NCBI GenBank assembly: GCA_903842345.1
Contig: CAIMLR010000017.1
Coordinates: 33,960-97,959 of the forward strand
DNA: 64,000 nt
Direction: 5' to 3'
Origin: an uncultured Myxococcales bacterium
GTDB lineage: Bacteria; Myxococcota_A; UBA9042
The notes under the pieces were generated by a model that saw only the letters and a list, made by a program, of their open reading frames with translations, was not told the origin of the DNA and did not search any database. Positions 1-49,223 of the stretch are shown one piece after another (within the stretch, counting starts at the first letter, position 1; each line of letters starts with the position of its first letter). Made by a program: the position numbers and the translations under genes.

Positions 1-382
1 CGCGTTCCTGCGCGACGCCGCCCGCGCTTGGGGCTTGCAGGTTGGCACGGTCTCGCAGCCGCTTGGCACGATCACGCCGGCCAGTCGTCTGGTCGTGGCC
101 GGTGTCGGAGCGCTGCTCGCCGTCTTCGCCGCGTTTGACGGCCGCTCCGGCTTCGATTTCGCCGAACAGGTCACCGTCGTTGCCGACCGGCCGGGTGAGC
201 GGCAGCTGGCTGGCCTCGTGGGCGCCCTGCTCGGCAGCCATCAGGCCGTCAAGCTCTTGGCTCCGAATGCTGCCAAGGACGCAGTCGCGGCCTTTCGCGC
301 GGAACGCATCATCGCGTCGTCGGACGTCTCTGCCGCGGTTACCCGTGCGCTGGACTCTTGGCGGCAAGGGGGCCTCTTCTAA
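1..382 (+). CDS. Hypothetical protein, 5'-truncated at the window edge. The reading frame is open from nt 2. Its stop TAA at 380-382 overlaps the ATG of pglW (TAATG).
   Basis: ORF track 35..382. The frame is open to position 2. Ala/Val-rich with no recognisable motif. Translationally coupled to the downstream pglW. Confidence 0.3.
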   Translation, partial: AFLRDAARAWGLQVGTVSQPLGTITPASRLVVAGVGALLAVFAAFDGRSGFDFAEQVTVVADRPGERQLAGLVGALLGSHQAVKLLAPNAAKDAVAAFRAERIIASSDVSAAVTRALDSWRQGGLF

Positions 383-3300
383 TGGCCCTGTCGGCGTCCC
401 GCATTCCCGCTCAAGGCCTCACTCGCCATCCGCACGAAGCGGCGGCGTTTGAGCTGGTTCGCGCGACGCTTCCGGACTCGGACCCGTATCACGCTTGGGC
501 ATTTGTCGAGCTGCGTGCCCCGGACGGCCGCCTGTATGAAATTGACGCCTTGGTTCTGACCCGCAACTGCCTGTTCCTGATTGAAATGAAGTCGTGGCAC
601 GGCAAGGTGCGCAGCGACAATCCGGTCGACTTCATCCGCACGATGCCCGACGGCAGAAGCTGGGTCGAAGCCAACCCCTACGACTTGGCCAACCTGAAGG
701 CCAAGGTCCTGGCGTCGATGCTGGAACGGCGGATGGGCAGCCGTAAGCCGCACGTGCAGGCGCTGGTGCTCATCACGGAGTCGACCGGCATCGAGCTGCG
801 CGGGCAGGCAGGGTCGTGCATCGTCGGCCCAAAGAAACTGCCGGACGCCCTGCTCCGCAGCCAGTTTGACGGCGCCCCAGCATGGTTGTCCGCGCGCACC
901 GTCGACAAGCCGATCGCGCGCGACGTGGCGGCGGCGCTGCTTGCGATGGGCGTGGCCAAGAGCAAAGGCGCGTTCAAACTGGGTGCACTTGAACTCGGTG
1001 AAGTACTGGAAGAAGGCCCGGGCTATCAGGACCGGATCGGCCGAAACCCGACCGTCAAGGAAATGGAGCGCCGCGTCCGCCTGTACCTGGTGCCGCAGGC
1101 CGCGACCGACGCCAACCGCGAGCAATTGCGCCGCGCGGCAGAACGGGAAGCCCGACTGCTGACCGTGCTGGGCGACCACCGCTACATCCTCAAGGCGCCG
1201 GACTACAACCCCGAAGGTCCGCACGGTGGGCCGTGTGTCGTTTTTGAGCGGTTTGACGACGGCGTCACGCTCGACACGTTCATGCGCCGCCACGCGGATC
1301 TGCCGCTGGACCTGCGCATCGACATCATCACGCAGGTTGGCGAGGCGCTGCAGTACTGCCACGCCAAGAGCGTTTTCCACCGCGGCCTACACCCGGGCGC
1401 CGTGCTGGTGCGCAGGAATGCCGACGGCAAGGTCGAGACGCGTCTGTACAACTTCCAGCTGGCGGCGCGCGAAGGCATGACGTCGGGCACGGCGCACCAC
1501 ACGTTGCACACCGCGCGGGCGGCGGAAATCTACCGAGCGCCGGAGCTGCTGGAGAACCCGCAGATTCAGAACGCGGAAGCCGACATCTTCTCGCTGGGCG
1601 CTGTCGCCTGGTTTGTGCTGGTGGGCCGACCGCCGGCGAGCAACCTGGCCGAGCGTCAGCGTATCCTCGACCTGAACGATTGCCTGTCCCTGGCGCCGGC
1701 GCGCGACGATCTGGCCAACGGCTACCGTGACGTCGACGACGATGGTTTTCGCGGCCTGGACGACGCGATTCAAGCGGCGACGCAGGCCAAGCCCGTCAAC
1801 CGCAACGACTCCGTGCACCAGTGGCTGGAATGGCTGATGGACGCTGTGACCAAGCCGGCCCCACCAGAAGACACCACGGTGGAGCCGCTTTCGGCGCGCG
1901 CCAAGGACGAATTGGAAGACGGCTTCACGGTCGTGGAGGTGCTGGGCACCGGCTCGACGGCGCGGGCGCTGCTGGTCGAGCGGGATGGGCGTCAGTACGC
2001 CTTGAAAGTGGCGCTGGACCGGGACTGCGAAGACAAGCTGCAGGCAGAAGCGCTGGTGTTGGAGAAGCTGACCAAGCTCGACAACATCGTCACGCTCGCC
2101 GCCACGCCGACCATCGCAGGCCGGTATTCGCTGCTCATGACGCACGCCGGGCAATCGCTGGCGCAGTATTTGGCGAAGGCTGGCCCACCGACGCTGGACC
2201 TCGCCGCACGCTGGGGCGAGGACCTGCTGCGCGCGCTGGTGACGCTGGAAGAGCTGGGCATCCAGCACCGCGACATCAAGCCAGCCAACATCGGTACGAA
2301 CGACACGGCGGCCAAAGACGCGCGGCATCTGATCCTGTTCGACTTCTCGCTGTCGCCCGTGCCCGCGGAACGCACGACCGCAGGCACGCCAGCCTACCGC
2401 GACCCGTTCCTCATCAAGCGCGGCCGCTGGGACCAGGCGGCAGACCGGTACTCTGCGGCGCTGACGCTCTACGAGATGCTGACGGGCGTGCTGCCCCGCT
2501 ATGGCAGGGGCAACACGTCCGCGATTGCGACCGACGAGGAAGTGACGGTCGAAGCCGAGCGCTTTGACGCCGCCATCCGCGAGCAGGTTGCCGCCTTCTT
2601 TGCCAAGGCGCTGGCCCGCAATGTCCTGGAACGCCATGCAAGTGCCGAGTCGATGCTGCACGACTGGCGCCGCTGCCTGGCTGGCTTGGACGCCGCGACA
2701 GCACACGGCGACGACGACGCGCAGAGCGACGAGAACATCAGCAAGTTCAACTACGCGGGCCTGACGGCTGAATCGCCCGTGGACGTGCTGCCGTTGACCG
2801 TGCGCGCCCGCAGTGCGCTGGACCGCTCGGGCGCCCACACGGTGCGCGAACTGCTGGGTCTGTCGCGCAACCGCCTGGCGTTCATCCGCGGCGTGGGCAA
2901 AGACACCCGCAACGCGATCCTGCGGGTCATCAACCTGATCGAGGAAGCCAAGCCCGACCTGCGCGGCGCGCAAGGCGAGGCGTTCTGGCCGGACTGGCGC
3001 GGCGTCGATTCCACGGTGGCGCTGGTGCCGGGCTTGGGCCAGGACGCCGCTGCTGCGCTGGAAGACGCCGACCTGCGCCGCGTCGGCCAGCTGGTGCGTG
3101 CGCCCAAGTCCCGCGTGGAGCGGCTGCTGCAGCGCTTTCCGGGCGCGGCCGATGCGGTCACGGCCTACTTGAAGCTCGCCCTGCCGGGTACCGTCCCCGC
3201 GCTGGCAACGACGATTGAAGGCTGGGTGGATCTGCTCCTGCCGCCGTCCGCCGCCAAGCGGGGCGATGCTGCGTTGCGCAACGTGCGAGTGCTGTTTGGT

Positions 3301-4749
3301 CTGGAGGACGTCGACGGCAAGTACGCGGAGAACGCGGACACGGCCGCGACGCTGCTCGGCATGACGCGGCAAGCCGTCCACATCTCGCTCACCCACCGCA
3401 AAGAAGCGTGGCTGGGCATCCCGCACGACGACGTTCTGACCGCGGTGAAGTTGACGCTGGACGCCTTGGGCGGCGCGGCCCCTGCGGCGCGCGTGGCGGA
3501 CGCGTTGCCCGACATCCTGCCGCACGCCGCTGATATTACCGGTGATACGGCCGCGCGTTCTGCCCTGGCGCTGGTGCAGTTGGCCGCCGCGCTGGCTAGC
3601 GACTTCACCAGCACGTGGAAGGCCAGTACCCGCTGGCTCGTGCCGGACACTTCGTGCGGCGCCGTGGTCCGTGACCTCGGCAAGGTCGCTGACAGCCTTG
3701 CGGCGCGTGAGACCGTGGCGGCACCGGGTGTCGCGCAGGAAGCTTTGCTTGCCGTCGTGAAGAATACGCCGCTGGCCAGTGCGCCGCCGGAGCGTCTGGT
3801 GCGCATCGCCGCCTGGGCGAGTGACCACGCGGCCGCCAGCGCGCGTCTGGAGCTCTACCCGCGCGGCTTGCATGCCAAACGGGCGCTGCAGCTCTGCTCG
3901 GGTGCGGTGTCGGCCAAGGAGCTGAAGGTTGAGGAGCTGAACACGCTCGTGTGCGCCCGTTACCCGGAGTCCGAGCCGCTGCCGACGCGCCCCGCGCTGG
4001 ACGCCTTGGTCAAGCACGAGCTGGGCCTGCGCTGGTTTGAAGACCGTCAGGCGTACGCGCGCGACTATGCGCCGGGTGAGACGCGCAATCACACGCAGCA
4101 CTCGACGTCGCACCGGTCTGCGTCCACCGGCCGTCTGCGTTCGTCGTCCTTGGTGACCGCGCCGATCCAGACGCCGGAACAACAGGTCGCGTCCGACTTC
4201 GAGCGGGATCTGCAAATCGCTCTCGAACGATTCAGCTTCAAGGTGCTGCGGGTGGGCGCCAGCAAAGCGGAAGCGCTCGCGCGGGCCATCCGGGCACGTT
4301 TCAACGTGCAGGAAGTATCGCTGGACGAGTTGCTGCTCAAGCACGCGCGCGCCTTCGCGGCCGAGCATGAGTTCGCGCTGGAGCTGGTGTACACGGCCGA
4401 CCGCGCTGGCAAAGACAGCGACCGCTGGAACGATCTGGTGTCCGTCATGCGCGAAGCTGCCACCCGCACGCAGATTGAGCTGCTGGCCAAGCGCGGCATG
4501 CTGCTGCTGACCCGTCCGGGCTTGCTGGCGCGCTATGGCTTGAACGACCTCGTCGTCAACCTGCGCGACGCCGTCGCCACGACGGACGGCCTCGGCATCC
4601 TGTTCATCGTGCCGTCGGAGGCCGCAAACCCCGCGCTGGTCATTGACGGCCGCCCGTACAGCATGGAACTGGAAGCGCTGCCCGCCCACCGTCTGGAAGT
4701 CCCTCCCGCCTGGATCCGCCAGCACACGCCGGCCATCCTCGCCGCCTGA
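382..4749 (+). CDS. pglW: BREX type 2 PglW: serine/threonine protein kinase with an N-terminal NERD-like nuclease-related domain, a degenerate then a canonical kinase domain, and a C-terminal HhH-like region
   Basis: NERD-like motif YEIDALVLTRNCLFLIEMKSWHGKV. First kinase-like domain with a degenerate catalytic loop (HRGLHPGAVLV). Second domain has the glycine loop LGTGSTARALLVERDGRQYALKV, catalytic HRDIKPANIG and DFS. HhH-like GVGKDTRNAIL. Position is first in the pglW-X-Y-Z-brxD-brxHI order. ATG at 382; the track alternative is TTG at 358. Confidence 0.85.
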   Translation: MALSASRIPAQGLTRHPHEAAAFELVRATLPDSDPYHAWAFVELRAPDGRLYEIDALVLTRNCLFLIEMKSWHGKVRSDNPVDFIRTMPDGRSWVEANPYDLANLKAKVLASMLERRMGSRKPHVQALVLITESTGIELRGQAGSCIVGPKKLPDALLRSQFDGAPAWLSARTVDKPIARDVAAALLAMGVAKSKGAFKLGALELGEVLEEGPGYQDRIGRNPTVKEMERRVRLYLVPQAATDANREQLRRAAEREARLLTVLGDHRYILKAPDYNPEGPHGGPCVVFERFDDGVTLDTFMRRHADLPLDLRIDIITQVGEALQYCHAKSVFHRGLHPGAVLVRRNADGKVETRLYNFQLAAREGMTSGTAHHTLHTARAAEIYRAPELLENPQIQNAEADIFSLGAVAWFVLVGRPPASNLAERQRILDLNDCLSLAPARDDLANGYRDVDDDGFRGLDDAIQAATQAKPVNRNDSVHQWLEWLMDAVTKPAPPEDTTVEPLSARAKDELEDGFTVVEVLGTGSTARALLVERDGRQYALKVALDRDCEDKLQAEALVLEKLTKLDNIVTLAATPTIAGRYSLLMTHAGQSLAQYLAKAGPPTLDLAARWGEDLLRALVTLEELGIQHRDIKPANIGTNDTAAKDARHLILFDFSLSPVPAERTTAGTPAYRDPFLIKRGRWDQAADRYSAALTLYEMLTGVLPRYGRGNTSAIATDEEVTVEAERFDAAIREQVAAFFAKALARNVLERHASAESMLHDWRRCLAGLDAATAHGDDDAQSDENISKFNYAGLTAESPVDVLPLTVRARSALDRSGAHTVRELLGLSRNRLAFIRGVGKDTRNAILRVINLIEEAKPDLRGAQGEAFWPDWRGVDSTVALVPGLGQDAAAALEDADLRRVGQLVRAPKSRVERLLQRFPGAADAVTAYLKLALPGTVPALATTIEGWVDLLLPPSAAKRGDAALRNVRVLFGLEDVDGKYAENADTAATLLGMTRQAVHISLTHRKEAWLGIPHDDVLTAVKLTLDALGGAAPAARVADALPDILPHAADITGDTAARSALALVQLAAALASDFTSTWKASTRWLVPDTSCGAVVRDLGKVADSLAARETVAAPGVAQEALLAVVKNTPLASAPPERLVRIAAWASDHAAASARLELYPRGLHAKRALQLCSGAVSAKELKVEELNTLVCARYPESEPLPTRPALDALVKHELGLRWFEDRQAYARDYAPGETRNHTQHSTSHRSASTGRLRSSSLVTAPIQTPEQQVASDFERDLQIALERFSFKVLRVGASKAEALARAIRARFNVQEVSLDELLLKHARAFAAEHEFALELVYTADRAGKDSDRWNDLVSVMREAATRTQIELLAKRGMLLLTRPGLLARYGLNDLVVNLRDAVATTDGLGILFIVPSEAANPALVIDGRPYSMELEALPAHRLEVPPAWIRQHTPAILAA

Positions 4750-4770
4750 CTTTTTTCGCACCGGAGTCCC

Positions 4771-7700
4771 ATGGCCCGCACCCGCCAGCCCGAGAACCTG
4801 ACCGCAGCGCTCGCCCGTCTCCTGACCAGGACGCTGCTGCCGGACCTGCGCGAGCGCACCAAGCTGCCGGCCGTGGCCAAGGAACTGCAGCGGGAGTACG
4901 ACGACGAGCGCGCGGCCAAGAAGACCGGTGCCAGCTTTATCGACTGGCGCGAGCAGCTGCTGGATCAGGTGGCCGCGGCGTGGGCGCTGTCCTGCGTGTT
5001 CGTGCGCACGCTGGAGGATCGCGACCTGCTGGACCAGCGCCGCATCGCCGGGCCGGGCGCGGATGACAGCCTGCACCTCTTCTACACGCTGGCGCCGAGC
5101 CTGGGCCCGCGCGAGTACCTGCTTGGCGTGTTCAAGGAAGTGTCGCGCCTGCCCGGTGCCGTGGACCTGCTGGGGCCCAAGCACAACGCCGCGTGGAAGC
5201 TGGGGCCGAGCCAGGACGGCGCACGCGCGCTGCACGATTTCTTCCGGGAAGTGGATGACGCGGGCGAGCTCCGCTGGCAGTTCGGCGGCGAGGACACGCG
5301 CTTTCTGGGCGACCTGTACCAGGACCTGTCCGAAGCCGTGCGCGAGCGCTTTGCACTGTTGCAGACGCCGGAGTTCGTGGAGTCGTTCATCCTCGACCGG
5401 ACGCTGACGCCTGCCATTGCCGAGTTTGGCCTGCAGACCGTGCAGGTGCTGGACCCGACGTGCGGTTCTGGCCACTTTTTGCTGGGCGCGTTCGAGCAGC
5501 TGTTCAACCAGCGGCTGGCGGCGACGCCGGGGGCGGAGCTGGGCAAGGTCGCGCTGGCGGCGCTGCAGCAGGTGCATGGCGTGGACCTGAACCCGTACGC
5601 GGTGGCAATTGCGCGGTTCCGGCTGACGCTCCGGTTCTTGCAGGTGACCGGGATTGGCAAGTTGCGGAACGCGCCGCGGGAGTTGGACGAACTGACGGGC
5701 AACCTGGTGGTGGCTGATTCGTTGCTGATCGAGGCTGGCGGCCAGCGTCACGCGGGCGAGCTGTTCCCGTCGGACGAGGGCTGGGGCAAGGACGTGTCGA
5801 TCTTTGCGCTGGATGAACCCGAGGCGGCGCGCGAACTGCTGCGGAAACGGTTCCACATCGTCGTGGGGAATCCGCCGTACATCACCTGCAAGGACGCTGT
5901 GTTGCGGGAGGCGTACCGGGCGAAGTACACGAGCGCGGCTGGCAAGTACGCGCTGTCTGCACCGTTTGCTGAGCGATTCTTTCAGCTGGGCTCGGACGGA
6001 GCGTTTGTCGGGCAGATCACCTCCAACTCGTTCATGAAGCGCGAGTTTGGCAAGTCGCTGATTGAGCAGGTGTTTCCGCACCTAGATTTGACCGAAATCA
6101 TTGACACTTCAGGCGCGTACATCCCTGGGCACGGCACGCCGACGGTGATTCTCGTCGGGCGGAATCGCCCGCCGGTGCACTCGACTGTTTTTGCTATTCA
6201 AGGCAAGCGCGGCGAGCCATCCACGCCGTTAGATCCGGCGTCTGGTAGGGTTTGGACAAGTATCGTGTCGACAATGAGGGCACGAGACGAAGGAGTAGTA
6301 GCGCCTGACGCCGACGAGTTCATCTCCAACGCAACATTCGCCCGAAAGGCCCTCGCGATTCATCCATGGTCGCTCGGTGGTGGTGGCGCCAGCGAACTCA
6401 AGGAAGTGCTCGATCAGACAGCCCACTCCCAGCTCGGAAGCACAACATCGATCGGCATCGGCTCGATCTCAGCCGCGGACGAAGTGCATATTCGGACAGC
6501 TCAGGAATGGGCGCGCGTGCGGATGCCCCCTAAATGGCTTCGTCAGCTCGTCACAGGCGATATCGTCCGGGACTGGCTCGCACCTTCGACGGAGCAAGCG
6601 TGGCACCCATACGGCGACAGCGGCCGCCTCGCACCGCCTGACCCCGCTGAACTGTCCGCGCTGTGGCGATTCCGGACGATTTTGTGGGATCGCGCCACGT
6701 TTTCCGGGCGGAACTACCGATCTGAAGGTCGACCTTGGTACGAATGGCATCAGGTCACGGGGAGCAGGTATGCGACGCCTCTATCCCTCAACTTCGCCTG
6801 CGTCGCTACGCACAACCACTTCGTTCTCGACAAGGGGGGCAGCGTGTTCAACCGCTCCGCTCCTGTCATCAAACTTCCCGCCGACGCCAGCGTCGACGAC
6901 CACTTGGCAGTGCTCGGTGTGCTGAATTCGTCGGTTGCCTGCTTCTGGATCAAGCAGGTGTTCTATCCGAAGGCGTCGGCCTCCAAGGAAGCGTATTCCG
7001 AACCAGGAAAGCCAGAAGATAACCGGTATGACATCGCTGCAACCGGGATGGAATCGTTCCCGATGCCCGATCTTTCCAATCGGTTCCGCGACCCCATTAT
7101 TGAGTGCGCGCGGAGCATCGATCGGCTGGCCCGCACACGCGCCCGCGTGGAGCCGCTCTACATCGTCGCCGGCAACAACGGCTCAGCCCAATCACTGACG
7201 AGAGCACTCGCGGACGCAGATGCCAACTCACAGACGCTCTTGAACGAGATGGTGGCCTGGCAAGAAGAGTTGGACTGGCTGGTTTACTCGGCGTACGGAC
7301 TGACCGGCGACGTGGAACGCATTCGGACGCCTTCGCCAGTCCGCCCAGAGGACCGCCCGTTTGCTTGGGTGAATGACGATGGGCCCGCTCATTTGCCGCT
7401 GGAAAATGCACAGGTCTATCGACAGCGGCGGAAGTTGATTCTTGAGAACCGAAACCTTGCGCTCATCGAGACCCCGGTGTTCAAGCGTCTGTGGCTCGGG
7501 CAACGCGGCATCTTTGGCCACAACAATTTGGACTACAAGCAGCGCACCACTTCGGCGTGCAAAGCATGGCTGCTGGACCGCCTGGAATCCTGGAGCCAGG
7601 ACGACCTCAGCCGCCCCTTCTCCATCCGCGAAGCCACCCAAGCCCTGCAGCACGAGCCCGCCGTCCAAGCCGTTGCCGAAGTCCTCACCGGCTCGTCGGA

Positions 7701-8295: not shown

Positions 8296-8304
8296 CGGCC
8301 GGGT

Positions 8305-11300
8305 GTGGGAGAATCGATGACCAAGCTGCGTGAACTGCTGATCCTGCCAGAGACCGTCTCCAAGGGGCAGTTCGTCGTCCGTCTGACCGACGGCGTCGAA
8401 CACCCCGAGGAGCTGCTCAAGGACTACGCCATCACGCCGGACTTGGCCGCGGCCTTTGACAAGGCGCTGAGCCTGACCCGCGAATCGCTGCAGAACGCCC
8501 GCAGCGTCGGCAGCTACATCCACGGCTCGTTTGGCTCCGGCAAGTCGCACTTCATGGCCGCGCTGTCGCTGACGCTGGCGGGCAACCCGACGCCGTGGGG
8601 CAAGCCGGAGCTGCACGCCACGCTGGCAAAGCACGAGTGGGTCAAGAACACCAAGCTGATGCGCCTGCACTTTCACGTCGTCGGCGCGCAGACGCTCGAA
8701 GAGAAGGTCTTTGCCGGCTACCTGGACTTCGTGCAGGCCAACCACAGGGACGCCCCGCTGCCGGCGCTGTTTCAGGACGCCGCGCTCTTTGCCAACGCCG
8801 TTCAGATGCGCAGCACGCTGGGCGACACGCCGTTCTTTGAGCGATTGAACGCCGCGACGCCCAGCGGCAACGGCGGTGGCTGGGGCACTTTCCGCCCGGC
8901 CGCGCGCTGGCATGCGGACAGCTTTGACCAAGCCGTGGCCTCGACGGACGCCCAGCTCCGCGCCGACCTGTTCTCAGCGCTGGTGCGCACGCTGTTCCCA
9001 GCGTTCATTGGCCAACAGTCGCGCTACGTCGGCATCGACGACGGGCTGGCGGTGCTGTCGCAGCACGCGGCCAAGCTCGGCTATCAGGGCGTGGTGCTGT
9101 TCCTCGACGAACTCATCCTGTGGCTGGCCAGTCGCGCCGCCGACCAAACGTGGCTGAGCGCGGAAGCGACCAAGGTCGCCAAGCTGGTGGAAGCGCAGAA
9201 CACCCACCGGCCGATCCCCATCATCAACTTTGTGGCCCGGCAGCGCGACATCTCGGAACTGGTCGGCGACTCCATGGCCGGCGCCAATGCGGTGAACTTG
9301 CGCGATTCGCTCAAGTGGTGGGAAGGCCGGTTTGACACCATCACGCTGCCCGACCGCAACCTGCCCGCCATCATCGCCACCCGCGTCGTCAAGCCGCGCG
9401 ACACGCAAGCGCGCAACCAGCTGAACCAGGCGTTCAGCAAGTTCCAGGGCGGCGCGCGCGCATCGTGGGCCACGCTCTTGGGCGAGGAATGGTCGACGCA
9501 GGACTTCCAGCAGATCTACCCGTTCTCCCCGGCGCTGGTGCAGGGTCTCGTCGCGCTTTCGCACTACCTGCAGCGCGAGCGCACGGCGCTGAAAGTGCTT
9601 ATGGAAATGCTCGTCCAGCACATGGAGGATTTCAAGCTTGGCGACCTCGTCGGCGTCGGCGACCTGTTTGACGTGCTGGCCGGCGGCGAAGACCCGATGG
9701 ACGGGCGGATGCGCGACCTGTTCGACGGCGCCAAGAAGCTCTACAACAACGAGCTGCTGCCGCTCATCCAGAACCGCAACAACACCACGACTGAGGCGGT
9801 CTGCCAGCGCAAGCGCGACGACCACCCGATTGCGCTGGGCTGTTCCAACTGTCCTCAGACGGCGTGCCGCAGCGACAACCGCTTGGTCAAGACGCTGCTG
9901 CTGGCCGCGCTGGTGCCGGAAGTGCAGGTGCTCAAGCGCCTGACAGCGTCGCGGCTTGTGGCGCTCAACCATGGCACGCTGGAGGTGATGATCAAGGGGC
10001 GCGAGGCCAAGGACGCCGTCATCCGCCTGCGCGACTACGCCGCAGAAGTCGGCAAGCTGCAGATTGGCAGTGAGGATGACCCGACCCTGGCGATTGCGCT
10101 GCAGGGCGTGGACGTGAAGCCGCTGCTGGACCAGGAGCGCGTGCAGGACGGCCCAGGCGCACGGCGGCGGCGTCTGCGCGAGCTGCTGTTCCAGGCGCTG
10201 CAGTTGAACGACACGCTGGCGGAGCTCCCGTACAGCCTGGAGTGGCGCGGCACGATGCGCAAAGGCACAGTGCGCTTTGGCAACGTGCGGGAGATGACCG
10301 ACTCCGATCTGGACACGCCGACTGGCGACGACTTCCGCGTGGTCATCGACTACCCGTTTGACGAGCCGCAGCACCGTCCCAAGGAGGACGAGGAGCGCGT
10401 CGGCTTGTACCTGGAGAAAGGCAAGACGGCGCGGACTGTGGTGTGGCTGCCGAGCTTCTTCTCGGACAAGCTGCAGCGCGACCTGGGCGACCTGGTGGTG
10501 GTCGAGTACGTGCTGAAGAACGAGAGTCAGTCACTGGCGCTGTTGCGGCCCGAGGACCGTGCGCGCGCGGCGTCCGAACTGCAGAGCCTGCGCAACCAGA
10601 AGCAGGAGCGCCTGAAGCGGGCGCTGGCGGCGGCGTATGGCGTGGCGACGATGCAGGAAGGCGATCTGGACGAGGAGAACCGCGTCTCGCACAACTTCTA
10701 CCTGCTGCGCGAGGACCTGAAGGTGCAGCCGTCCTTGGCGGCGGACCTGAAAGCAGCGATGGATGGCGCGATTGGCGACATGCTGGCGCAGTGGTACCCG
10801 CGGCATCCGAAGTTCAGCGAACGCCTGTCGAACATGAAGCTGACCAAGGCCCTGGAGCGATTCCAGGCAGCGGTCGACGCCGAAGGCCAGCGGATTGCCG
10901 TGGACAGGGCCGAGCGGCCACAGTTGGACATCTGTCAGGACGCGCAACTGCTCCACGTGACCGACACCTGGGCGAGCGTGCATGCGGCGGTTCTGCAGCA
11001 GGTCGATGGCCGGCTGTCGGCGCGCGGGATGCTGCGGCCGATGGTCAAGCAGGTGGCGGACGCGTTTGACCCGGACGGCTACTTTGGCCTGCAGCGCGAC
11101 GTGCGCGACTTCTACGTGCTGGCGTACGCCGCGTGGAACGCCCGCCAGCTGCGGCTGGATGGCGAGCTGTGCAAGGACCTGAGGATCGGCCAGTTGCCGC
11201 CCGACGCGGAGCTGGAGAAGCCGCTGCTGCCGTCAGCCACGGAGTTCCAGAGCGCGCTTGAGAAAGCCGGCAAGCTGTTCGGCATCACGATTGCCGGCCG

Positions 11301-11952
11301 CGCGCTGAACCCCAAGAACGTCAACGACTTTGTCGAGAACCTGCAGAAGGCGCGCAAGGTAGCGGTGACGCAGTCGGCTGGCGCAGTAGCGCAGTACCTG
11401 CTGCAGCGCTCGGCGTTCTTCAATCTCGACCCCGAGCCCGCGCGGCTGCGTACGGCGAACTCGGCGCTACAACTGCTGGATGAACTGGACGAGCGGGACG
11501 TGGTTCTGGTGGTCCAACGCCTGGCTGCGTTTCAGCCGGAGACTTCAGCCACGGCTCTGGCCAAGCACTTCACCGACGCGCTGAAAGTGGCGAGCGTCCT
11601 GCAAGAGCGCCTGCCGTTTGACCTGTTTGCCGACGTCATGTCGCTCACGGACCGCCCGGACGCCACGGAGCTGCTGACCGCACTGCGCGCTGCGCTGGAA
11701 GCTGATCAGGTGCAGACGGAGCTGAAGACACAAGTTGACCAGTTGGCCAACCGGGCGCGACAGCTGCTGCGCAAGCCGATACCGCCGCCGCCCCCGCCAC
11801 CGCCGCCGCCCCCGAAGGGCAAAGGTGGCCAAGCGCGCGGTGATGCGGCTGCCATCCAGGCTGAAGTGGCCAAGGCGATTGCGGCGCTAGGAGAAGCCAA
11901 CGAAAACGAGGAGCTGACAGTTGAGTGGCTTCTGGTCCGGAGGGATAGTTGA
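8305..11952 (+). CDS. pglY: BREX PglY/BrxC-type P-loop ATPase
   Basis: Walker A YIHGSFGSGKSHFMAAL near the N-terminus. About 1200 aa. An 11-residue poly-Pro tract lies near the C-terminus. GTG at 8305, or ATG at 8317 preceded by GGGAGA. The stop overlaps the pglZ start (TTGA). Confidence 0.85.
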   Translation: MGESMTKLRELLILPETVSKGQFVVRLTDGVEHPEELLKDYAITPDLAAAFDKALSLTRESLQNARSVGSYIHGSFGSGKSHFMAALSLTLAGNPTPWGKPELHATLAKHEWVKNTKLMRLHFHVVGAQTLEEKVFAGYLDFVQANHRDAPLPALFQDAALFANAVQMRSTLGDTPFFERLNAATPSGNGGGWGTFRPAARWHADSFDQAVASTDAQLRADLFSALVRTLFPAFIGQQSRYVGIDDGLAVLSQHAAKLGYQGVVLFLDELILWLASRAADQTWLSAEATKVAKLVEAQNTHRPIPIINFVARQRDISELVGDSMAGANAVNLRDSLKWWEGRFDTITLPDRNLPAIIATRVVKPRDTQARNQLNQAFSKFQGGARASWATLLGEEWSTQDFQQIYPFSPALVQGLVALSHYLQRERTALKVLMEMLVQHMEDFKLGDLVGVGDLFDVLAGGEDPMDGRMRDLFDGAKKLYNNELLPLIQNRNNTTTEAVCQRKRDDHPIALGCSNCPQTACRSDNRLVKTLLLAALVPEVQVLKRLTASRLVALNHGTLEVMIKGREAKDAVIRLRDYAAEVGKLQIGSEDDPTLAIALQGVDVKPLLDQERVQDGPGARRRRLRELLFQALQLNDTLAELPYSLEWRGTMRKGTVRFGNVREMTDSDLDTPTGDDFRVVIDYPFDEPQHRPKEDEERVGLYLEKGKTARTVVWLPSFFSDKLQRDLGDLVVVEYVLKNESQSLALLRPEDRARAASELQSLRNQKQERLKRALAAAYGVATMQEGDLDEENRVSHNFYLLREDLKVQPSLAADLKAAMDGAIGDMLAQWYPRHPKFSERLSNMKLTKALERFQAAVDAEGQRIAVDRAERPQLDICQDAQLLHVTDTWASVHAAVLQQVDGRLSARGMLRPMVKQVADAFDPDGYFGLQRDVRDFYVLAYAAWNARQLRLDGELCKDLRIGQLPPDAELEKPLLPSATEFQSALEKAGKLFGITIAGRALNPKNVNDFVENLQKARKVAVTQSAGAVAQYLLQRSAFFNLDPEPARLRTANSALQLLDELDERDVVLVVQRLAAFQPETSATALAKHFTDALKVASVLQERLPFDLFADVMSLTDRPDATELLTALRAALEADQVQTELKTQVDQLANRARQLLRKPIPPPPPPPPPPPKGKGGQARGDAAAIQAEVAKAIAALGEANENEELTVEWLLVRRDS

Positions 11953-14723
11953 GCCAGGACGTCCCGCACCTGAGCACGCCCGAGATCGGCGACGAGTTGG
12001 CCCGCATCCACGGTGGCAAGCCGCACGCGATGCTCGACACGGTGATCTTTGGCAGCACGCAGCCGGCCGAAGTCATTGTGCGCTTGGGCAACCGCGACCA
12101 GATATTTCGCGTAATACCGGCGACGTGTGAGCTGGCGCTGCGCGATGCCCTAGCCAACCGCGGAGATACGCCGGTCGCGGCCGTCATCGACTTTGGCGTC
12201 GACCTGCCGCTGGACATCAGTTGCCGCGTCGCCCAGATGCGGGTCCACACGCCCGACCGCGCCCAGCGCCTCGTGAGCCGTCTGGTCGATTTGGAGCCGG
12301 GCCAACGCATCGACGCCAGCGCGCCGTTGCTGCGCAGTGCGCTTGGCAAGGCGATCCTGTCGGGGATTCCGGTCCGGCAGCGGAAGGCCACTTGGCCGCT
12401 CATCGGCGTCGGCGATGCCTGGCGCGCCGTCCTGGCTGAAACGGCCGGGCTGCCGCTCGACACGACGCTGACCTTTGACCGCGTCCTGGAGCACGTTGCG
12501 ACGACGCAGAAGCCGGCGACGCTGACCGCCATCCTCGACGCCAACAAGGATCGCCGCAGCGAGTTCGATGTCTGGTTTACCGGCGAGGTCGGTGCCCCGG
12601 CGCTGCAGGCGTGGAAAGCGTGGGAGCGCGGCGACGGCGGCAAGGTGGCGGCTGTGGCCGTGCTGCTGCGCGCCGCCCGCGACCACTACGCCAGCAACCC
12701 GTTCCTGCAAGGCTGGCTGACGCTGCCGCTGAAAAGTGCGGGCGTCAGCATCGACGGTGAGAAGGACGTCACCATTTGGGCCGATGCCGGTCAGAGCCTG
12801 CTGGTGCGCTTGGATACGAGCGGCAACACCTGGCAGGTCCAGCAGCTCATCGACGCTGCGTCCGAGATGGCCTCCGAGGAAGTCGTGCGCGAGCAGCTGG
12901 CGGACAGCAACTGGCTGCCGTTCGCGTTCGAGATCCAAAAGCGTCGGCTCGCCAAGGCGCTCACTGACGCTGGCGCGACCGAGTCGGCACAGGCACAGAA
13001 AGATGCCCGCGAGGCACTCAAGGCCCTGCGTGCCCATCGCCTCGCCAATCACCATGCCAATGCCGGCCTGCTGGCCCGAGGCGAAGCGGCCATCCGCCTA
13101 CTGGCATGTCTAACGCGCGCGGAGGTCAGTCGTCCTGTTGGCTGGGAAGCCGTCGCGAGCTACGCATCCGAATACGCGCAGGAAGGTGGCTACGTCGACC
13201 GCGCCCGGCGTGCCCTGCGAGGTGAGAACGGCACCGACGAGCTGGGCGACGCGATGCAGGACGTGTTGCGGCGAGCCGACAAGGCCCGTGACGCGCTGGA
13301 CTTGGCGTTTGCGCGAAGCCTGGCTGCGTGGGCAAACGCGGGGCGACCGGCTGCGGGCGTGCTGCCCATCGAGATGGTGCTGGAGCGGATGGCCGCGCAG
13401 TTCCTCGACCAAGGCCCGGAACGCAAGCTGCTGGTGCTCGTACTCGATGGCTTGTCGTGGACGGTCGCGTGTGAGTTGCTGGAAGGCTGGGTCTCACGCG
13501 AAATATCACCGGTGCGCTGGAACCCGGACGGCTTCGCAGCAGGCACGCTGGTGCCCGTGCTGGCCGCGCTGCCCACGGCGACTGACGTCAGCCGCGCGGC
13601 GCTCTTTGCCGGGAAGCGGATGCAGTCCGGTGTCACGCACTACACGGCGGGCGACACGGACCGCTTTGCCCATCATCCGGGCCTGTGTCGGCATGTTACG
13701 CGAGCGGGCGGACCGACGCTCCTGCTGCGCGCCAAGCTGGAAGGATCGGCGACGGCCATTTCGCCCGAAGCGCTGCGGCTGCTGCAGAGCGCGGACCGCG
13801 TCGTAGCGTGCGTGGTCAATGCAATCGACGACGACCTCAGCGGCACGACCCAAGCCAAGCTGTCCTATGGTCCGGACGACGTGCCGCTGGTGCGGGAACT
13901 GCTGTCCCAGGCGTTTGCCGCCGGCCGTCACGTACTGCTGACCTCCGACCACGGCCACGTCCCAGGCGCTCGGCTGAAGTACCGGGCGACGACAAACAAC
14001 AAGGGCGCGCGCTGGCGGCAAATCGCTCCGGGTGAACAGCCTGCGGCTGATGAGATCGCGCTGACCGGCGACTGCGTATGGCTTCCGCCCGGCGCAGAAC
14101 GTGTGGCGCTGCTTGCCAGTGAGACGGCTCGCTTTTCGACATCCGCGCTGGCCGGTGAACACGGTGGAGCGTCGCTGGCCGAGGTCGTGATCCCGGCGGT
14201 GATTCTGGGCAACAGCGAGTTGGACCGGCAGTTCCGCGACACCGACCCTGCCTTGGAGCAGATTCCGCTGCGGCAGCCGACGTGGTGGCAGCTTGAGGGC
14301 TGGGTAGAAGAAGCGCCAGTCAAGCCAGCAAAGACCGCGCCTGCTCCGACCAAGAAGAACGTCATGGCGCTGCCCGGGCTTGTCGACGTCGCCCCGCCAG
14401 TGACCGACCCCGCGAAGAAACCGTCGCACGTCCGGCAGCTGATCCTCGAGTCCAAGCTGTTCGATTCGCTGACGGCGTACCAACGCGACCAGATGCAAAC
14501 GCGCGTCCTGCCGTGGCTGGAGGCCATCGAAGGTGCAGGCGGGCAGATGTCCGCGGACCGCTTTGGCCAAGCCGCTGGGCTCCTGCCCACACGCGTCGGC
14601 GGTGCTGTGTCGCTGATGCAGGAGTCCATCAGCATGGACGGGTACGAGCCGGTGACGTTCGACGCGACCACGCGCGAGCTCAAGCTGCACATGGACCTGC
14701 TCAAACAGCTGTGGGGAGGCTAG
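11949..14723 (+). CDS. pglZ: BREX PglZ alkaline-phosphatase-superfamily protein
   Basis: PglZ-type motifs LLVLVLDGLSWTV and LLTSDHGHVPG. 924 aa from TTG 11949. Alternative in-frame ATGs at 12027 and 12237. Confidence 0.85.
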   Translation: MSQDVPHLSTPEIGDELARIHGGKPHAMLDTVIFGSTQPAEVIVRLGNRDQIFRVIPATCELALRDALANRGDTPVAAVIDFGVDLPLDISCRVAQMRVHTPDRAQRLVSRLVDLEPGQRIDASAPLLRSALGKAILSGIPVRQRKATWPLIGVGDAWRAVLAETAGLPLDTTLTFDRVLEHVATTQKPATLTAILDANKDRRSEFDVWFTGEVGAPALQAWKAWERGDGGKVAAVAVLLRAARDHYASNPFLQGWLTLPLKSAGVSIDGEKDVTIWADAGQSLLVRLDTSGNTWQVQQLIDAASEMASEEVVREQLADSNWLPFAFEIQKRRLAKALTDAGATESAQAQKDAREALKALRAHRLANHHANAGLLARGEAAIRLLACLTRAEVSRPVGWEAVASYASEYAQEGGYVDRARRALRGENGTDELGDAMQDVLRRADKARDALDLAFARSLAAWANAGRPAAGVLPIEMVLERMAAQFLDQGPERKLLVLVLDGLSWTVACELLEGWVSREISPVRWNPDGFAAGTLVPVLAALPTATDVSRAALFAGKRMQSGVTHYTAGDTDRFAHHPGLCRHVTRAGGPTLLLRAKLEGSATAISPEALRLLQSADRVVACVVNAIDDDLSGTTQAKLSYGPDDVPLVRELLSQAFAAGRHVLLTSDHGHVPGARLKYRATTNNKGARWRQIAPGEQPAADEIALTGDCVWLPPGAERVALLASETARFSTSALAGEHGGASLAEVVIPAVILGNSELDRQFRDTDPALEQIPLRQPTWWQLEGWVEEAPVKPAKTAPAPTKKNVMALPGLVDVAPPVTDPAKKPSHVRQLILESKLFDSLTAYQRDQMQTRVLPWLEAIEGAGGQMSADRFGQAAGLLPTRVGGAVSLMQESISMDGYEPVTFDATTRELKLHMDLLKQLWGG
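12101..12120. repeat. Short AT-rich motif copy (GATATTTCGCGTAATACCGG) of the GTATTT..GTGATAC family, inside the annotated 5' end of pglZ
   Basis: Matches the copy at 58996-59026 (ATATTTCGCGTGATAC) in 16 of 17 positions. Confidence 0.4.
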
Positions 14724-14726
14724 GCC

Positions 14727-16058
14727 ATGTCCAACGTCTCCCTACTTCGCCGCCAGGAGATTGTCGCCGCGCTGCGCAACGGCACCGTCCCCGAGTTCGG
14801 CTTTGACCAGCTCGCCGTTGGCATCGAGCGCTTCTCGACCGCCATCGACGAGGAACTGGAGCGCGTGGCCCGCGGCCGCGGCGGATTCAAAGCCGTGCGC
14901 GGCGACTGGGGCGCGGGCAAGACGTTCTTTAGCCGATGGTTGCAGAATCGCGCGCGTGCCCAAGGCTTCGCCACGGCCGAGGTGCAGATCTCCGAGACGG
15001 AGACGCCGCTGTACCGCTTGGAGACCGTCTACCGGCGCGCGATGGAGCACTTGCGGACGCGCGAGTGGAACGACGGCGCTTTTCGCGCGCTGGTGGAGCG
15101 CTGGTTCTTCTCGCTGGAAGAGGAGGTGCTGGCGCAGCCGGGTGCGCCGACTGACGAGAGGCTGGTCGCCAAGGCAGTGGCCGAACTGCTGGAAGGCCGC
15201 CTGAACGCGGTCAGCGCCACGCACCCGCAGTTCGCCGCTGCGCTGCGCGCCGTCTACAAGGCCCGCATGGACGGAGACCCGGCGACCGCCGACGGCCTGC
15301 TGGCGTGGCTGATGGGCGAACCGCATGTGGCCGCCAGCGTGAAGCAGCGCGCCGGCGTCAAAGGCGAGGTCGACCACTTTGCGGCGACCGGGTTCCTGCG
15401 CGGCCTGTTGTCCGTCCTGAACCAGACGGGCCGGCGCGGACTGGTGCTGGTGCTGGACGAGGTAGAGACGATCCAGCGGATGCGCTCCGACGTGCGCGAG
15501 AAGAGCCTGAACGCACTACGGCAGTTCCTGGATGACTTGGACGGCGGTCGCTACCCAGGGCTGTACCTCGTCATCACCGGCACGCCCAGCTTCTTTGACG
15601 GCCCACAAGGCGCCCGCCAATTGCCGCCGCTGGCCCAACGCCTGCACGTCGACTTCGGCGCGGACCCGCGCTTTGACGCCACGCGCGCCATCCAGATCCG
15701 CCTGCAGCCGTTCGACCAGGCGCGACTGTTGGAAGTGGGCCAGAAGGTACGCGCCCTCTACCCGACCAAGCACCCTGAACGCGTAGCAGAGCGGCTGTCC
15801 GACGACGTGCTGGTCGCGCTAGCTCGCAAGGTGGCCGGGCAACTCGGCGGCAAGGTCGGTTTGGCGCCACGGCTGTTCCTGAAGAAGCTCGTCGGCGACG
15901 TGCTGGACCGCATCGAGGAGTACGAGGACTTCGACCCGGTGCAGCACTACCAGCTCACCGTGTCTGCGTCGGAGCTGTCAGACGTGGAGCGCGCCGCGGC
16001 CGGCATCGAGCGCAGCGTCGACGACATCGAGCTTGACCTGAGCGGCGGCGACACGTGA
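14727..16058 (+). CDS. brxD: BREX BrxD ATP-binding protein
   Basis: Walker A RGDWGAGKTFFSRW. 443 aa, typical BrxD size. ATG 4 nt after the pglZ stop. Confidence 0.8.
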   Translation: MSNVSLLRRQEIVAALRNGTVPEFGFDQLAVGIERFSTAIDEELERVARGRGGFKAVRGDWGAGKTFFSRWLQNRARAQGFATAEVQISETETPLYRLETVYRRAMEHLRTREWNDGAFRALVERWFFSLEEEVLAQPGAPTDERLVAKAVAELLEGRLNAVSATHPQFAAALRAVYKARMDGDPATADGLLAWLMGEPHVAASVKQRAGVKGEVDHFAATGFLRGLLSVLNQTGRRGLVLVLDEVETIQRMRSDVREKSLNALRQFLDDLDGGRYPGLYLVITGTPSFFDGPQGARQLPPLAQRLHVDFGADPRFDATRAIQIRLQPFDQARLLEVGQKVRALYPTKHPERVAERLSDDVLVALARKVAGQLGGKVGLAPRLFLKKLVGDVLDRIEEYEDFDPVQHYQLTVSASELSDVERAAAGIERSVDDIELDLSGGDT

Positions 16059-18157
16059 CGGCGTTCGAGCGCTTGAGCCCCGCGATGCAGTACCAGATCG
16101 TCAACGCTCTGGGCTTTCAGTCGCTGCGCCCGGTGCAGGAAGTCGCGATTCCGCCGATTCTGGACGGCGCCAACTGCGTGGTGCTTGCGCCGACGGCGGG
16201 CGGCAAAACAGAAGCGGCGTTCTTCCCGCTGCTCTCGCAAATGGACACGCACGGCTGGCAGCCGGTGTCGGTGCTGTACGTGTCGCCGATCCGCGCGCTG
16301 CTGAACAACCAGGAGGAGCGCCTGCGCAGCTACGCCACCGTGCTGGGGCGTCGTGTGGCGGTATGGCACGGCGACGTCTCGCAGCGGGACAAACGCAAGT
16401 TCCTGCAGGAACCCGCGGACATCCTGTTGACCACGCCTGAGTCGCTGGAAGTGATGCTGATGAGCAGCAAGGTGCCGTCGCGCAGGCTGTTTGCCGGTTT
16501 GCAGGCGGTGGTCATCGACGAGGTGCACGCGTTTGCCGGCGACGACCGCGGCAGTCACCTGATGGCCGTGCTGGAGCGCCTGTGCCGTTTCTGTGGCCGC
16601 GACGTGCAGCGCATTGGACTGTCGGCGACGGTTGGCAACCCGGAGGAAATCCTGACGTGGCTGCAGGGCTCGTCGACGCGGCCGGGCGTGCTGGTGTCGC
16701 CGCCACGGCCACCGTCCACGCCGGAGATTGTCATCGACTACGTCGGCACGCTGGAGAACGCCGCGCGGGTTATCGCGCAGATGCATCGCGGCAAGAAGCG
16801 GCTGGTCTTTCTGGATAGCCGGGCAGGCGTCGAGTCGCTGGGGCAGCACCTGCGGGATCTGGGCGTGGACACGTACGTGCTGCACTCGTCATTGGCGCCG
16901 GATGAGCGGCGCAGGAGCGAAGCGGCGTTCGCCGAGCGGCAGAACTGCGTCATCGTGGCGACCAGTTCGCTGGAGTTGGGCATCGACATCGGCGACCTCG
17001 ACCATGTGCTGCAGATTGACGCGCCACGGACGGTCGCCAGCTTCCTGCAGCGCATGGGGCGGACCGGGCGCCGTGCCGGGGCGACGTCGAACTGCACGTT
17101 CCTGGCCACGGACGATGACGCGCTGTTGCAGGCCGCGGCCCTTTTGCGCCTGTATCGCAATGGCTTCGTCGAGTCGGTAGTGCCGGTGACGCGTGCGTTT
17201 CACATCCTCGCGCACCAGCTGCTGGCGCTGGGGCAGCAGGAGCAAGGCATCCCGCTGGCCGACTGGTGGGCGTGGGTCGGCCAAGCGGCGCCCTTCAAGG
17301 ACATCACCGCCGACGAACGCACCGCGCTCCTCGCGCACATGATGGCGGAGCAGATTCTCGTTGAGGATGGCGGCCGTCTGAGCCTCGGCCCCCAAGGCGA
17401 AAAGCTCTACGGCGGAAAGAACTTCCTGCCGCTGTACTCGGTGTTCGACACTGCGGACAGCCTGGATGTCTGCTACGGCCAGCGTATCATCGGTAATATC
17501 GAGTCCACGTACGTCGAGCAGCAAGGCGCGGGCGACCTGACGTTCACGCTCGGGGCGCGGGCCTGGCGCGGGTTGTACGTCGATTGGCAGCGGCATCGCC
17601 TCTACGTGGAACCGGCAACCCACGCCAATGCGCCATCGTGGCGAGGTTCGCCCGCGTTCCTCTCGTCCGAGCTGTGCGGCGCCATGCGGGACGTGCTGCG
17701 GGACGAAGGTCCCGCACCGGAATGGTCCAAGCGAGCAGAGAGCCAGATGGATGCGGTGCGCAAGACACGTCTGCATCAGGCGGACGCAGACGGGCAGCTG
17801 CTGCCGGAGACGGACGGGCTGTCGCTCTGGACGTTTGCGGGCGGGCGGGCCAACCATGTGGTGGCGAAGGTGCTGCAGGAGCTGATTGGCGAGAAGGTGA
17901 CTGCAGACAACCTGCGGATCAGGTTCAGGAGCGGCGCTGCGGACGTGGAGAAAATTCAGGGTGCGATGCAGGTGCTGGCAGAAGAGCACCGGCCAAACCG
18001 TGAGGATGCCCTGCGGGTGGTGGTGAAGATTGCCAAGGCGAAGTTGAGCAAGTTCCAGCCCTGTTTGCCGCCGGAGCAGGAGGCGGAGGTGCTGGTGGGA
18101 CGGTTGGTGGATTTGGGGGTGGTCGGAGATTTGGTGCGGCGATTGGCGGCGGGGTGA
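16055..18157 (+). CDS. brxHI: BREX BrxHI Lhr-like DEAD/DEAH-box helicase
   Basis: Walker A VVLAPTAGGKTEAAF. Motif II VVIDEVHAF. Helicase C motifs QRMGRTGRR. The GTG start overlaps the brxD stop (GTGA). Confidence 0.85.
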   Translation: MTAFERLSPAMQYQIVNALGFQSLRPVQEVAIPPILDGANCVVLAPTAGGKTEAAFFPLLSQMDTHGWQPVSVLYVSPIRALLNNQEERLRSYATVLGRRVAVWHGDVSQRDKRKFLQEPADILLTTPESLEVMLMSSKVPSRRLFAGLQAVVIDEVHAFAGDDRGSHLMAVLERLCRFCGRDVQRIGLSATVGNPEEILTWLQGSSTRPGVLVSPPRPPSTPEIVIDYVGTLENAARVIAQMHRGKKRLVFLDSRAGVESLGQHLRDLGVDTYVLHSSLAPDERRRSEAAFAERQNCVIVATSSLELGIDIGDLDHVLQIDAPRTVASFLQRMGRTGRRAGATSNCTFLATDDDALLQAAALLRLYRNGFVESVVPVTRAFHILAHQLLALGQQEQGIPLADWWAWVGQAAPFKDITADERTALLAHMMAEQILVEDGGRLSLGPQGEKLYGGKNFLPLYSVFDTADSLDVCYGQRIIGNIESTYVEQQGAGDLTFTLGARAWRGLYVDWQRHRLYVEPATHANAPSWRGSPAFLSSELCGAMRDVLRDEGPAPEWSKRAESQMDAVRKTRLHQADADGQLLPETDGLSLWTFAGGRANHVVAKVLQELIGEKVTADNLRIRFRSGAADVEKIQGAMQVLAEEHRPNREDALRVVVKIAKAKLSKFQPCLPPEQEAEVLVGRLVDLGVVGDLVRRLAAG

Positions 18158-18158
18158 G

Positions 18159-18180
18159 GGGTATTACTGGAAATACGGCC
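18159..18180. repeat. Short AT-rich inverted-repeat motif (GGTATTACTGGAAATACGG) 2 nt after the brxHI stop
   Basis: GTATT-N6-AATAC hairpin-capable. Near reverse-complement match to the 60491 copy. Confidence 0.45.
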
Positions 18181-18189
18181 GGGAACGAG

Positions 18190-18612
18190 TCAAGCCGGAT
18201 CCTGCGGCGGCCAGTCTCCAACCGCTGGTGGGTCAAAGTAACGATCGAGCACAGCAGCCTCGACGCTGGGCTGAGAGCGCAAATAGTCACTAAGGATTTC
18301 GCGGAACGTGCCGCGCCCCAACTCGCTGCGAATTGTTATGTCAATGAAGTTGCTCTTCTTGAGGTTGCAATCGCCGCATAGGTACTCGAGGTTGCTCCAA
18401 CTCGTCTCGCCGAAGAGTGAATATGGCCATCGGTGATCCGCCTGCATTGACGAGAGTCCCACATGATCAATGACTTTTCCACATGGACGGCAAGTCACGA
18501 CCGGGTAGGTGTATCCGACCAACTTCTTTGCGTGCTGACGAAACCACAGATCCCTCCAACTGCTCGGGAACGTCCGCTGAAGGGGGTCACATGTTGGCAC
18601 ATTGTCATCCAC
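18190..18612 (-). CDS. HNH endonuclease
   Basis: 140 aa. HNH motif CRPCGKVIDHVGLSSMQADHRWPYSLFGETSWSNLEYLCGDCNLKKSNF (Cys box plus DH..N..H). Overlaps the upstream DUF262 gene by 8 nt. Confidence 0.8.
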   Translation of the reverse strand: MDDNVPTCDPLQRTFPSSWRDLWFRQHAKKLVGYTYPVVTCRPCGKVIDHVGLSSMQADHRWPYSLFGETSWSNLEYLCGDCNLKKSNFIDITIRSELGRGTFREILSDYLRSQPSVEAAVLDRYFDPPAVGDWPPQDPA

Positions 18613-20188: not shown

Positions 20189-20308
20189 GACAGAATCTCC
20201 CAAGAGTCAAGTCGTACACGTCCGTCCGCTGTGAACGTGTCGAGCGCATCCACGCACGAGTCTAGGCCCGGCACCCGGCTTCGGTCAACCGCGCAGAAGG
20301 ACGAAGGA

Positions 20309-22801: not shown

Positions 22802-22870
22802 TCGGCAGCGGAAACGCATGCGACACGGATTGTCGCAGCCTTCCCGTACATTCTACGGCGGAGGTTTCCC

Positions 22871-49207: not shown

Positions 49208-49223
49208 GGCACCTGCCTCGGCG

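Follow-up and report, generated by a model that had tools for sequence, protein, structure and literature searches.

Type 2 bacteriophage exclusion (BREX), to which Pgl, a system of phage growth limitation, belongs and which, among others, Goldfarb et al. reportedly catalogued in 2015, has no accepted mechanism; at issue is how signalling by PglW is linked to methylation by PglX and to restriction by PglZ and PglY. In the census of Rakesh and Krishnan (2026) type 2 BREX was found in 1309 taxa, 1039 of which are actinomycetes (PMC12839542). Here we explore a stretch of 64,000 nucleotides (nt) from contig CAIMLR010000017.1, hereafter the window, in which pglW, pglX, pglY, pglZ, brxD and brxHI follow one another on the same strand and are preceded by a seventh conserved gene that runs off the 5' end. 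Judged from models, motifs and reading frames, this block of seven co-directional genes is very probably a type 2 BREX (Pgl) system, intact and directed against phages, that belongs to a Myxococcota-like bacterium.

The locus shares its components with the Pgl system of Streptomyces coelicolor A3(2), which has a PglW with a NERD domain, a degenerate and an active kinase, a PglX with the NPPY motif, a PglZ with a phosphatase fold and a PglY carrying the identical Walker A string GSFGSGKS (PMC4365076). In S. coelicolor pglWX and pglYZ form two operons separated by 6 kb, whereas here all genes lie in one block; a comparison with that locus, which the initial annotation of the window had proposed, agrees in components and not in arrangement. 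Furthermore, S. coelicolor pglX contains a G-tract that gives rise to phase variation, whereas a search for phase-variation repeats found no homopolymer tract of 7 nt or longer in the operon, and the hosts differ (Actinomycetota versus Myxococcota-like), as does the presence here of the seventh gene upstream. The systems catalogued by Rakesh and Krishnan share the same six-gene set, with brxD and brxHI as a tightly linked pair, as well as an RNA polymerase (RNAP) alpha-CTD-like domain in PglW (PMC12839542). Type 1 BREX of Escherichia coli, Salmonella and Acinetobacter also has a PglX-type methyltransferase, a BrxC-type ATPase and PglZ, but it includes brxA, brxB and brxL where the block has PglW, BrxD and BrxHI.

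The initial annotation had considered a NERD-containing PglW worth noting. A 2015 study reported the domain for S. coelicolor PglW (PMC4365076), and NERD followed by pseudokinase and kinase is the canonical PglW architecture (PMC4365076, PMC12839542). Since, in addition, PglW sequences of Myxococcales, Stigmatella and Sorangium are already included in the supplementary alignments of the census (PMC12839542), the six genes represent a further member of an established kind. Taken alone they would add one more non-actinomycete example to a list in which myxobacteria already figure. What is useful here is the seventh gene, which represents a conserved, well-folded family outside Pfam, NCBIfam and PADLOC that resembles a stripped PglX. 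If its product is a real subunit, the models by which type 2 BREX is detected lack a component for the myxobacterial lineage and reconstitution from six cloned genes could fail. A methyltransferase-like adaptor, if true, would also offer a concrete handle on the communication between kinase sensor and methyltransferase.

The six known components

The initial annotation had read the locus as type 2 BREX in the order pglW-pglX-pglY-pglZ-brxD-brxHI. End-to-end PADLOC matches (462-1288 bits) and NCBIfam models support this, the six open reading frames (ORFs) lie where it had placed them (Table 1), and all motifs it quoted were recovered. For each of the six proteins the best PADLOC match is a type 2 BREX model, aligned from end to end: PglW with 1089.5 bits (model positions 5-1397 of 1403), PglX with 1288.1, PglY with 1223.8 for BrxC-PglY (2-1194 of 1240), PglZ with 461.9 (1-941 of 943), BrxD with 637.6 and BrxHI with 931.6 (2-688 of 698). 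PglX (BREX_2_MTaseX, 1173 bits, cut-off 400), PglZ (BREX_PglZ_2, 479.5 bits, cut-off 200) and BrxD (BREX_BrxD, 623.6 bits, cut-off 350) also pass the corresponding NCBIfam models. Pfam identifies NERD, two copies of Pkinase and RNA_pol_A_CTD in PglW; Eco57I, MmeI_Mtase and the C-terminal domain DUF7008 in PglX; BrxC_BrxD in BrxD (E 7.9e-138); and DEAD, Helicase_C and WH_Lhr in BrxHI. Hence the profile searches that the initial annotation had suggested gave the expected hits for PADLOC and for BrxC_BrxD, while the Pfam PglZ domain, at 24.4 bits, falls just short of its cut-off of 25.

Table 1. Features of the seven-gene block and its surroundings. Positions refer to the window unless preceded by L008, a public contig.
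Feature	Position	Strand	Remarks
Seventh gene, full length	L008:9285-10001	same as pglW	identical public contig
Seventh gene, 3' end	2-382	+	238 amino acids (aa) in full; last 126 codons and TAA at 380-382
pglW	382-4749	+	1455 aa; ATG start at 382
pglX	4771-8295	+	1174 aa; ATG start at 4771; gamma-class N6-adenine DNA methyltransferase
pglY	8317-11952	+	1211 aa; brxC-type P-loop ATPase; ATG at 8317 after GGGAGA
pglZ	11949-14723	+	924 aa; TTG start at 11949; alkaline-phosphatase-fold protein
brxD	14727-16058	+	443 aa; ATG at 14727; ORC/Cdc6-type AAA+ ATPase
brxHI	16055-18157	+	700 aa; GTG at 16055; Lhr/Ski2-like superfamily 2 helicase
GmrSD_N/DUF262 gene	18605-20203	-	532 aa; convergent with brxHI; Pfam E 1.3e-25; PADLOC NsnA 118.7 bits
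Helix-turn-helix (HTH)-WYL-WCX regulator, BrxR/CapW type	21800-22801	+	333 aa from likely ATG at 21800
AAA+ ATPase	22871-24916	+	681 aa; IetA-like PADLOC matches of about 100 bits
Calcineurin-like phosphoesterase (metallophosphoesterase)	25028-25753	+	PADLOC PDC-S10 match
ORF	33032-36850	+	1272 aa; GC at third codon positions (GC3) 0.74; no Pfam or PADLOC match
Cys-rich ORF	41188-47124	-	1978 aa; 11 Dicty_CTDC repeats and C-terminal FGE-sulfatase domain
Kazal and Antistasin repeat protein	47669-49354	-	561 aa; adjoins the 1978-aa ORF

PglW is ordered as NERD nuclease, pseudokinase, active Ser/Thr kinase, RNAP alpha-CTD-like helical domain and C-terminal half. The NERD residues D55, E68 and K70 are intact. 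The tandem kinase announced in the initial annotation is indeed present, with the qualification that its first domain has HRG (333-335) in place of HRD and NFQ (357-359) in place of DFG and is by these residues a pseudokinase; the second is complete, with G-loop 522-527, K542, HRDIKPAN 629-636 and DFS 654-656. PglX has motif I DPTCGSG (228-234) and motif IV NPPY (367-370). PglY and BrxD both have Walker A (GSFGSGKS 70-77 and GDWGAGKT 59-66, respectively) and Walker B (VLFLDE 260-265 and VLVLDE 240-245). Key residues of PglZ are D500, T543/T545 and SDHGH 666-670, and BrxHI shows motif I APTAGGKT (45-52), DEVH (155-158; motif II), SAT at 190 (motif III) and QRMGRTGR at 332 (motif VI). As far as can be judged from sequence, the catalytic motifs of all six known proteins look intact.

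Other assignments were rejected. Type 1 BREX does not apply, since all ORFs of the block were assigned to type 2 components, brxA, brxB and brxL are absent from it, and the BREX-1 PglX model reaches 63 bits against a cut-off of 500. The same holds for the methylation-associated defence system (MADS), which is defined by the MAD6 kinase equivalog and the mad1-8 gene set: MAD6 stays at 250 bits in NCBIfam, where the cut-off is 460, PADLOC mad6 scores 172 against 1089 for PglW, and among the other mad models there is just a weak match of mad2 to PglX (25.5 bits).

None of the six ORFs contains an internal stop, and their codon-position composition shows GC3 values of 0.81-0.87 versus 0.42-0.49 at second positions. 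Gene calls on identical public contigs reproduce the protein lengths of the first five genes (1455, 1174, 1211, 924 and 443 aa); brxHI is outside the loci compared. For pglY a GTG at 8305, the longest-ORF choice, is an alternative start. Near the 3' end of pglY, at 11782-11814, an in-frame CCG repeat of 11 units (80% matches) is the sole tandem repeat in positions 1-22000.

The block had been called fully translationally coupled, with an overlap or a gap of 3-4 nt at every junction. Tight junctions are the TAATG in which the stop of the seventh gene overlaps the pglW ATG, TTGA (4-nt overlap, the pglZ TTG start lying on the pglY stop), GTGA (4-nt overlap, the brxHI GTG start lying on the brxD stop) and the 3-nt gap between pglZ and brxD. 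The claim is nevertheless overstated, as pglW-pglX and pglX-pglY are separated by 21-nt spacers, each with its own Shine-Dalgarno sequence (GGAG or GGGAGA). A promoter scan found no sigma-70 consensus inside the gene block, a terminator scan found intrinsic terminators inside it not above chance (counts were below shuffled expectation), and no hairpin downstream of brxHI emerged when inverted repeats were searched. In place of the single transcript of 17.8 kb that had been postulated, the predicted unit spans approximately 18.5 kb and seven genes, without internal terminators above chance.

The following points weigh against a single, intact system of seven genes. The two 21-nt junctions leave room for internal promoters. 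PglW lies 6 bits under the NCBIfam BREX_PglW equivalog cut-off (983.9 versus 990) and PglY lies under the BREX-2 PglY equivalog cut-off (757.5 versus 1700). Finally, in Wallbacteria and Acidimicrobiaceae loci the seventh gene does not adjoin pglW, and it is therefore not generally required by type 2 BREX. Because both alignments are full length, we read the shortfalls of PglW and PglY as apparent divergence from models trained mainly on actinomycetes. The same shortfalls, together with the state of the equivalent place in Sorangium cellulosum So ce56, where just pglX fragments and no pglW are kept, might be taken to mean that the locus is the remnant of a system in decay or no longer active. 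We consider this highly improbable, given that all seven reading frames are open, that models are covered from end to end, that catalytic motifs are intact and that the identical sequence was obtained from several independent samples.

Among species-representative genomes the nearest is an uncultured Myxococcales metagenome-assembled genome (MAG), in agreement with the initial description as a Myxococcota-like copy, with identities of 81% for PglY, 73% for PglZ, 97% for BrxD and 91% for BrxHI; its contig keeps the same gene order over the part covered. The six-gene order also occurs in Sorangium sp. So ce1014, a Wallbacteria MAG and an Acidimicrobiaceae MAG, and a Brocadiaceae MAG has pglX to brxHI in the same order, without pglW in the stretch examined. 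The C-terminal part of PglX is the least conserved segment of the operon (65% identity to the Myxococcales MAG), and GC content drops to 0.59-0.62 across 6001-7500 inside pglX versus approximately 0.67 for the remaining operon. This dip and the lowest conservation fit an exchange of the specificity region, as far as composition and identity can indicate.

Some additional observations concern the same genes. The C-terminal part of PglX (residues 750-1174, approximately 7019-8295) overlaps the end of the GC dip. Several related loci contain insertions: DUF1016/YhcG, DarT and Macro genes (DarTG-like) between pglW and pglX (L015:14981-17880), an AAA_21/AAA_15 ATPase (L013:18718-20627) or an AAA_16 ATPase (L014:18839-20717) after pglX, and approximately 2.1 kb between pglY and pglZ in Sorangium (L002 13642-15734). 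The window's operon has none of these. In S. cellulosum So ce56 (L006, NC_010162.1) pglY, pglZ, brxD and brxHI are intact, pglX is present as short fragments and pglW is absent from the 10 kb upstream, which gives the impression of type 2 BREX in partial decay in a reference genome.

The seventh gene, its family and its predicted fold

The initial annotation had described a complete operon of six genes. This does not hold, since a seventh conserved gene lies before pglW, overlaps its start and runs off the window. Metagenome contigs identical to the window complete the truncated ORF at 2-382 to a gene of 238 aa, with its start 334 nt upstream of the first window position. The contig used here, L008, matches the window without a difference along 14,749 nt and reaches 9.6 kb further upstream. 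The exact PglW sequence is found on at least 13 public contigs, and five contigs from different samples have the identical arrangement of seventh gene and pglW.

Upstream of the seventh gene, L008 has an intergenic region of 504 bp followed by a divergent DUF4379 gene. Transcription most likely starts in the intergenic region. The initial annotation had suggested looking for a promoter beyond the window; the region that could hold it is there, and a scan of it did not yield a sigma-70 promoter. The presumed promoter region contains a palindrome that is nearly perfect, CCGCATGCGACA-atcgc-TGTCGCATCCGG, at L008:9133-9161, approximately 125 nt ahead of the seventh gene's start. It is missing from nine related upstream regions and is therefore not a conserved operator, at best a local one.

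No match to the seventh protein was obtained in Pfam (121 members tested), NCBIfam, PADLOC or PDB sequences. Searching with the single sequence retrieved 25 relatives, and with a profile the number rose to 348 clusters at 90% identity. An exhaustive hidden Markov model (HMM) scan of 1.84 billion representatives delimits a family of 473 clusters at 50% identity, of which 336 at E <=1e-10. The best family matches listed are mostly stand-alone proteins of approximately 240 aa. Named sources are all Myxococcota or 'Deltaproteobacteria' and include Archangium violaceum, Stigmatella aurantiaca, Polyangium spumosum, Sorangium, Sandaracinaceae and Myxococcales MAGs. A tblastn search of PLSDB plasmids gave no match.

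Genomic context was compared among ten informative loci, namely that of the window, those of Sorangium So ce1014, A. violaceum and S. aurantiaca, and six metagenome or MAG contigs; an eleventh contig was left out as it ends too soon after the seventh gene to provide context. In all ten it is the immediate 5' neighbour of pglW, in the same orientation and with a spacing of -4 to +9 nt. It could be argued that the ORF is unrelated and adjoins a canonical six-gene type 2 BREX by coincidence: published definitions count six genes (PMC12839542), its product matches no PADLOC defence model and two non-myxobacterial type 2 loci lack it. Yet the adjacency to pglW is kept in every locus even though family members have as little as approximately 20% identity to the window's protein and what lies upstream of the gene is entirely different from locus to locus, and the best structural match of the protein, described below, is a BREX protein. 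We therefore regard an unrelated neighbour as very unlikely. Neither the main text nor the text-form supplements of PMC12839542 contain a seventh upstream component, and no mention of the gene was found in the searchable literature. The seventh gene is probably an undescribed component of type 2 BREX in the myxobacterial lineage.

AlphaFold2 (AF2) models of the family are of high predicted local distance difference test (pLDDT) scores, 92.6 and 96.2. They predict an HsdM/PglX-type helical N-domain and, after it, a class I methyltransferase fold shortened to the first 4-5 strands; a class I methyltransferase has seven. The nearest structures are Salmonella BREX PglX (PDB 8c45) and MmeI (5hr4); a Foldseek search of the PDB was not significant. 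Compared with these two the seventh protein, at approximately 240 aa, is without NPPY, target-recognition or C-terminal domains; the lack of a target-recognition domain follows from the fact that it ends after strand 4 or 5. The Gly-rich GxG(G) loop after strand 1 is kept, with G146 in 120 and G148 in 104 of 121 sequences. An NPPY-type motif IV is absent: the corresponding residues are ASSDVS in the window's protein and [SD]PDKGG in the consensus of the family. Thus, of what characterizes gamma-class N6-adenine methyltransferases, the helical N-domain and the class I fold are present and motif IV, (D/N)PP(Y/F/W), is not. Alignment by hhalign with the N-termini of type 2 PglX yields probabilities of just 0.1% and 1.7%. 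The likeness to PglX is thus structural only, as seen in predicted models, and is not accompanied by significant sequence similarity.

What such a protein might do can be approached from its fold. Methyltransferase-like partner subunits that are catalytically inactive are known, examples being METTL14, DNMT3L and Trm6. By analogy, these too have a methyltransferase fold without a working catalytic motif and stand beside an active methyltransferase. Based on the models, we tentatively see the seventh protein as a non-catalytic methyltransferase-like partner of PglW or PglX. It is unlikely that the protein is an active small S-adenosylmethionine (SAM)-dependent enzyme with a substrate other than adenine N6 in DNA, such as a nucleotide, a protein or a different position in DNA: the fold is truncated (4-5 strands in the models versus 7), the aromatic residue of an NPPY-type motif is missing, the motifs of the window's copy, VVAGVGA and ASSDVS, are weaker, and no sequence-level tie to any methyltransferase family was found.

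Proposed working of the system

The roles given below are inferred by homology with S. coelicolor Pgl (PMC4365076) and from comparative analysis and type 1 BREX (PMC12839542). PglX would methylate adenine at N6 within a short DNA motif. PglY, as BrxC-like ATPase, would form together with PglZ and PglX the core that discriminates and restricts, in which PglZ, a phosphatase-fold and putatively metal-dependent, nuclease-like protein, may also curb the toxicity of PglX. PglW would sense infection by means of its C-terminal half, which combines DNA binding with an inactive STAND module, and signal via its one active kinase domain, with the NERD nuclease as a possible back-up effector. BrxD would load or activate the BrxHI helicase on DNA. 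The seventh protein may tune methylation or restriction, either by binding to PglW or PglX or as a substrate of the PglW kinase.

Two ways in which methylation might serve defence have to be weighed. We give some preference to a type 1-like logic, in which self DNA is marked. In the classical, inverse Pgl logic PglX would be inactive in uninfected cells and mark phage progeny, such that marked DNA is restricted in the next infection. This is the original S. coelicolor model, in which lack of PglZ renders PglX toxic and resistance depends on the PglW kinase (PMC4365076), and the corresponding residues are all present in the window's proteins. On the other hand, according to Rakesh and Krishnan direct evidence for methylation of phage in the first cycle is lacking, and they argue for a type 1-like mechanism from the shared architecture (PMC12839542). 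Moreover, the absence of homopolymer tracts suited to phase variation sets the locus apart from S. coelicolor pglX. The inverse logic therefore seems the less probable of the two, albeit a serious candidate.

The seventh gene leads us to the following proposal, put forward as a conjecture that is plausible rather than probable. Type 2 BREX of Myxococcota would have seven components, the first protein being a cut-down, PglX/MmeI-like and obligatory partner of PglW that acts as a regulatory pseudo-methyltransferase or SAM-sensing subunit and connects the sensor kinase with the core responsible for methylation and restriction.

Neighbouring genes

The operon sits in a defence-rich neighbourhood. 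Directly downstream lies the GmrSD_N/DUF262 gene (Table 1), probably a type IV restriction-like accessory; GmrSD-type nucleases are frequent neighbours of BREX (PMC12839542). A low-GC stretch at 18001-20000 (GC 0.54-0.58) overlaps the gene, and the drop suggests that it was acquired separately. The regulator, ATPase and phosphoesterase at 21800-25753 possibly form a second defence module. Upstream of the operon, beyond the DUF4379 gene, L008:1-8780 contains genes for DUF2357 with PDDEXK_7 and for DUF6361, which suggests another nuclease-based defence system on the far side of the operon. No tRNA gene that could mark an island border was found in the window.

The remaining large ORFs of Table 1 lie further downstream. 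The strand assignment of the 1978-aa ORF is provisional, as gene picking based on GC3 favours small ORFs on the plus strand over it. In keeping with a myxobacterial origin of the window, Cys-rich proteins with Dicty_CTDC and FGE-sulfatase domains, as well as Kazal/Antistasin proteins, are common in myxobacteria.

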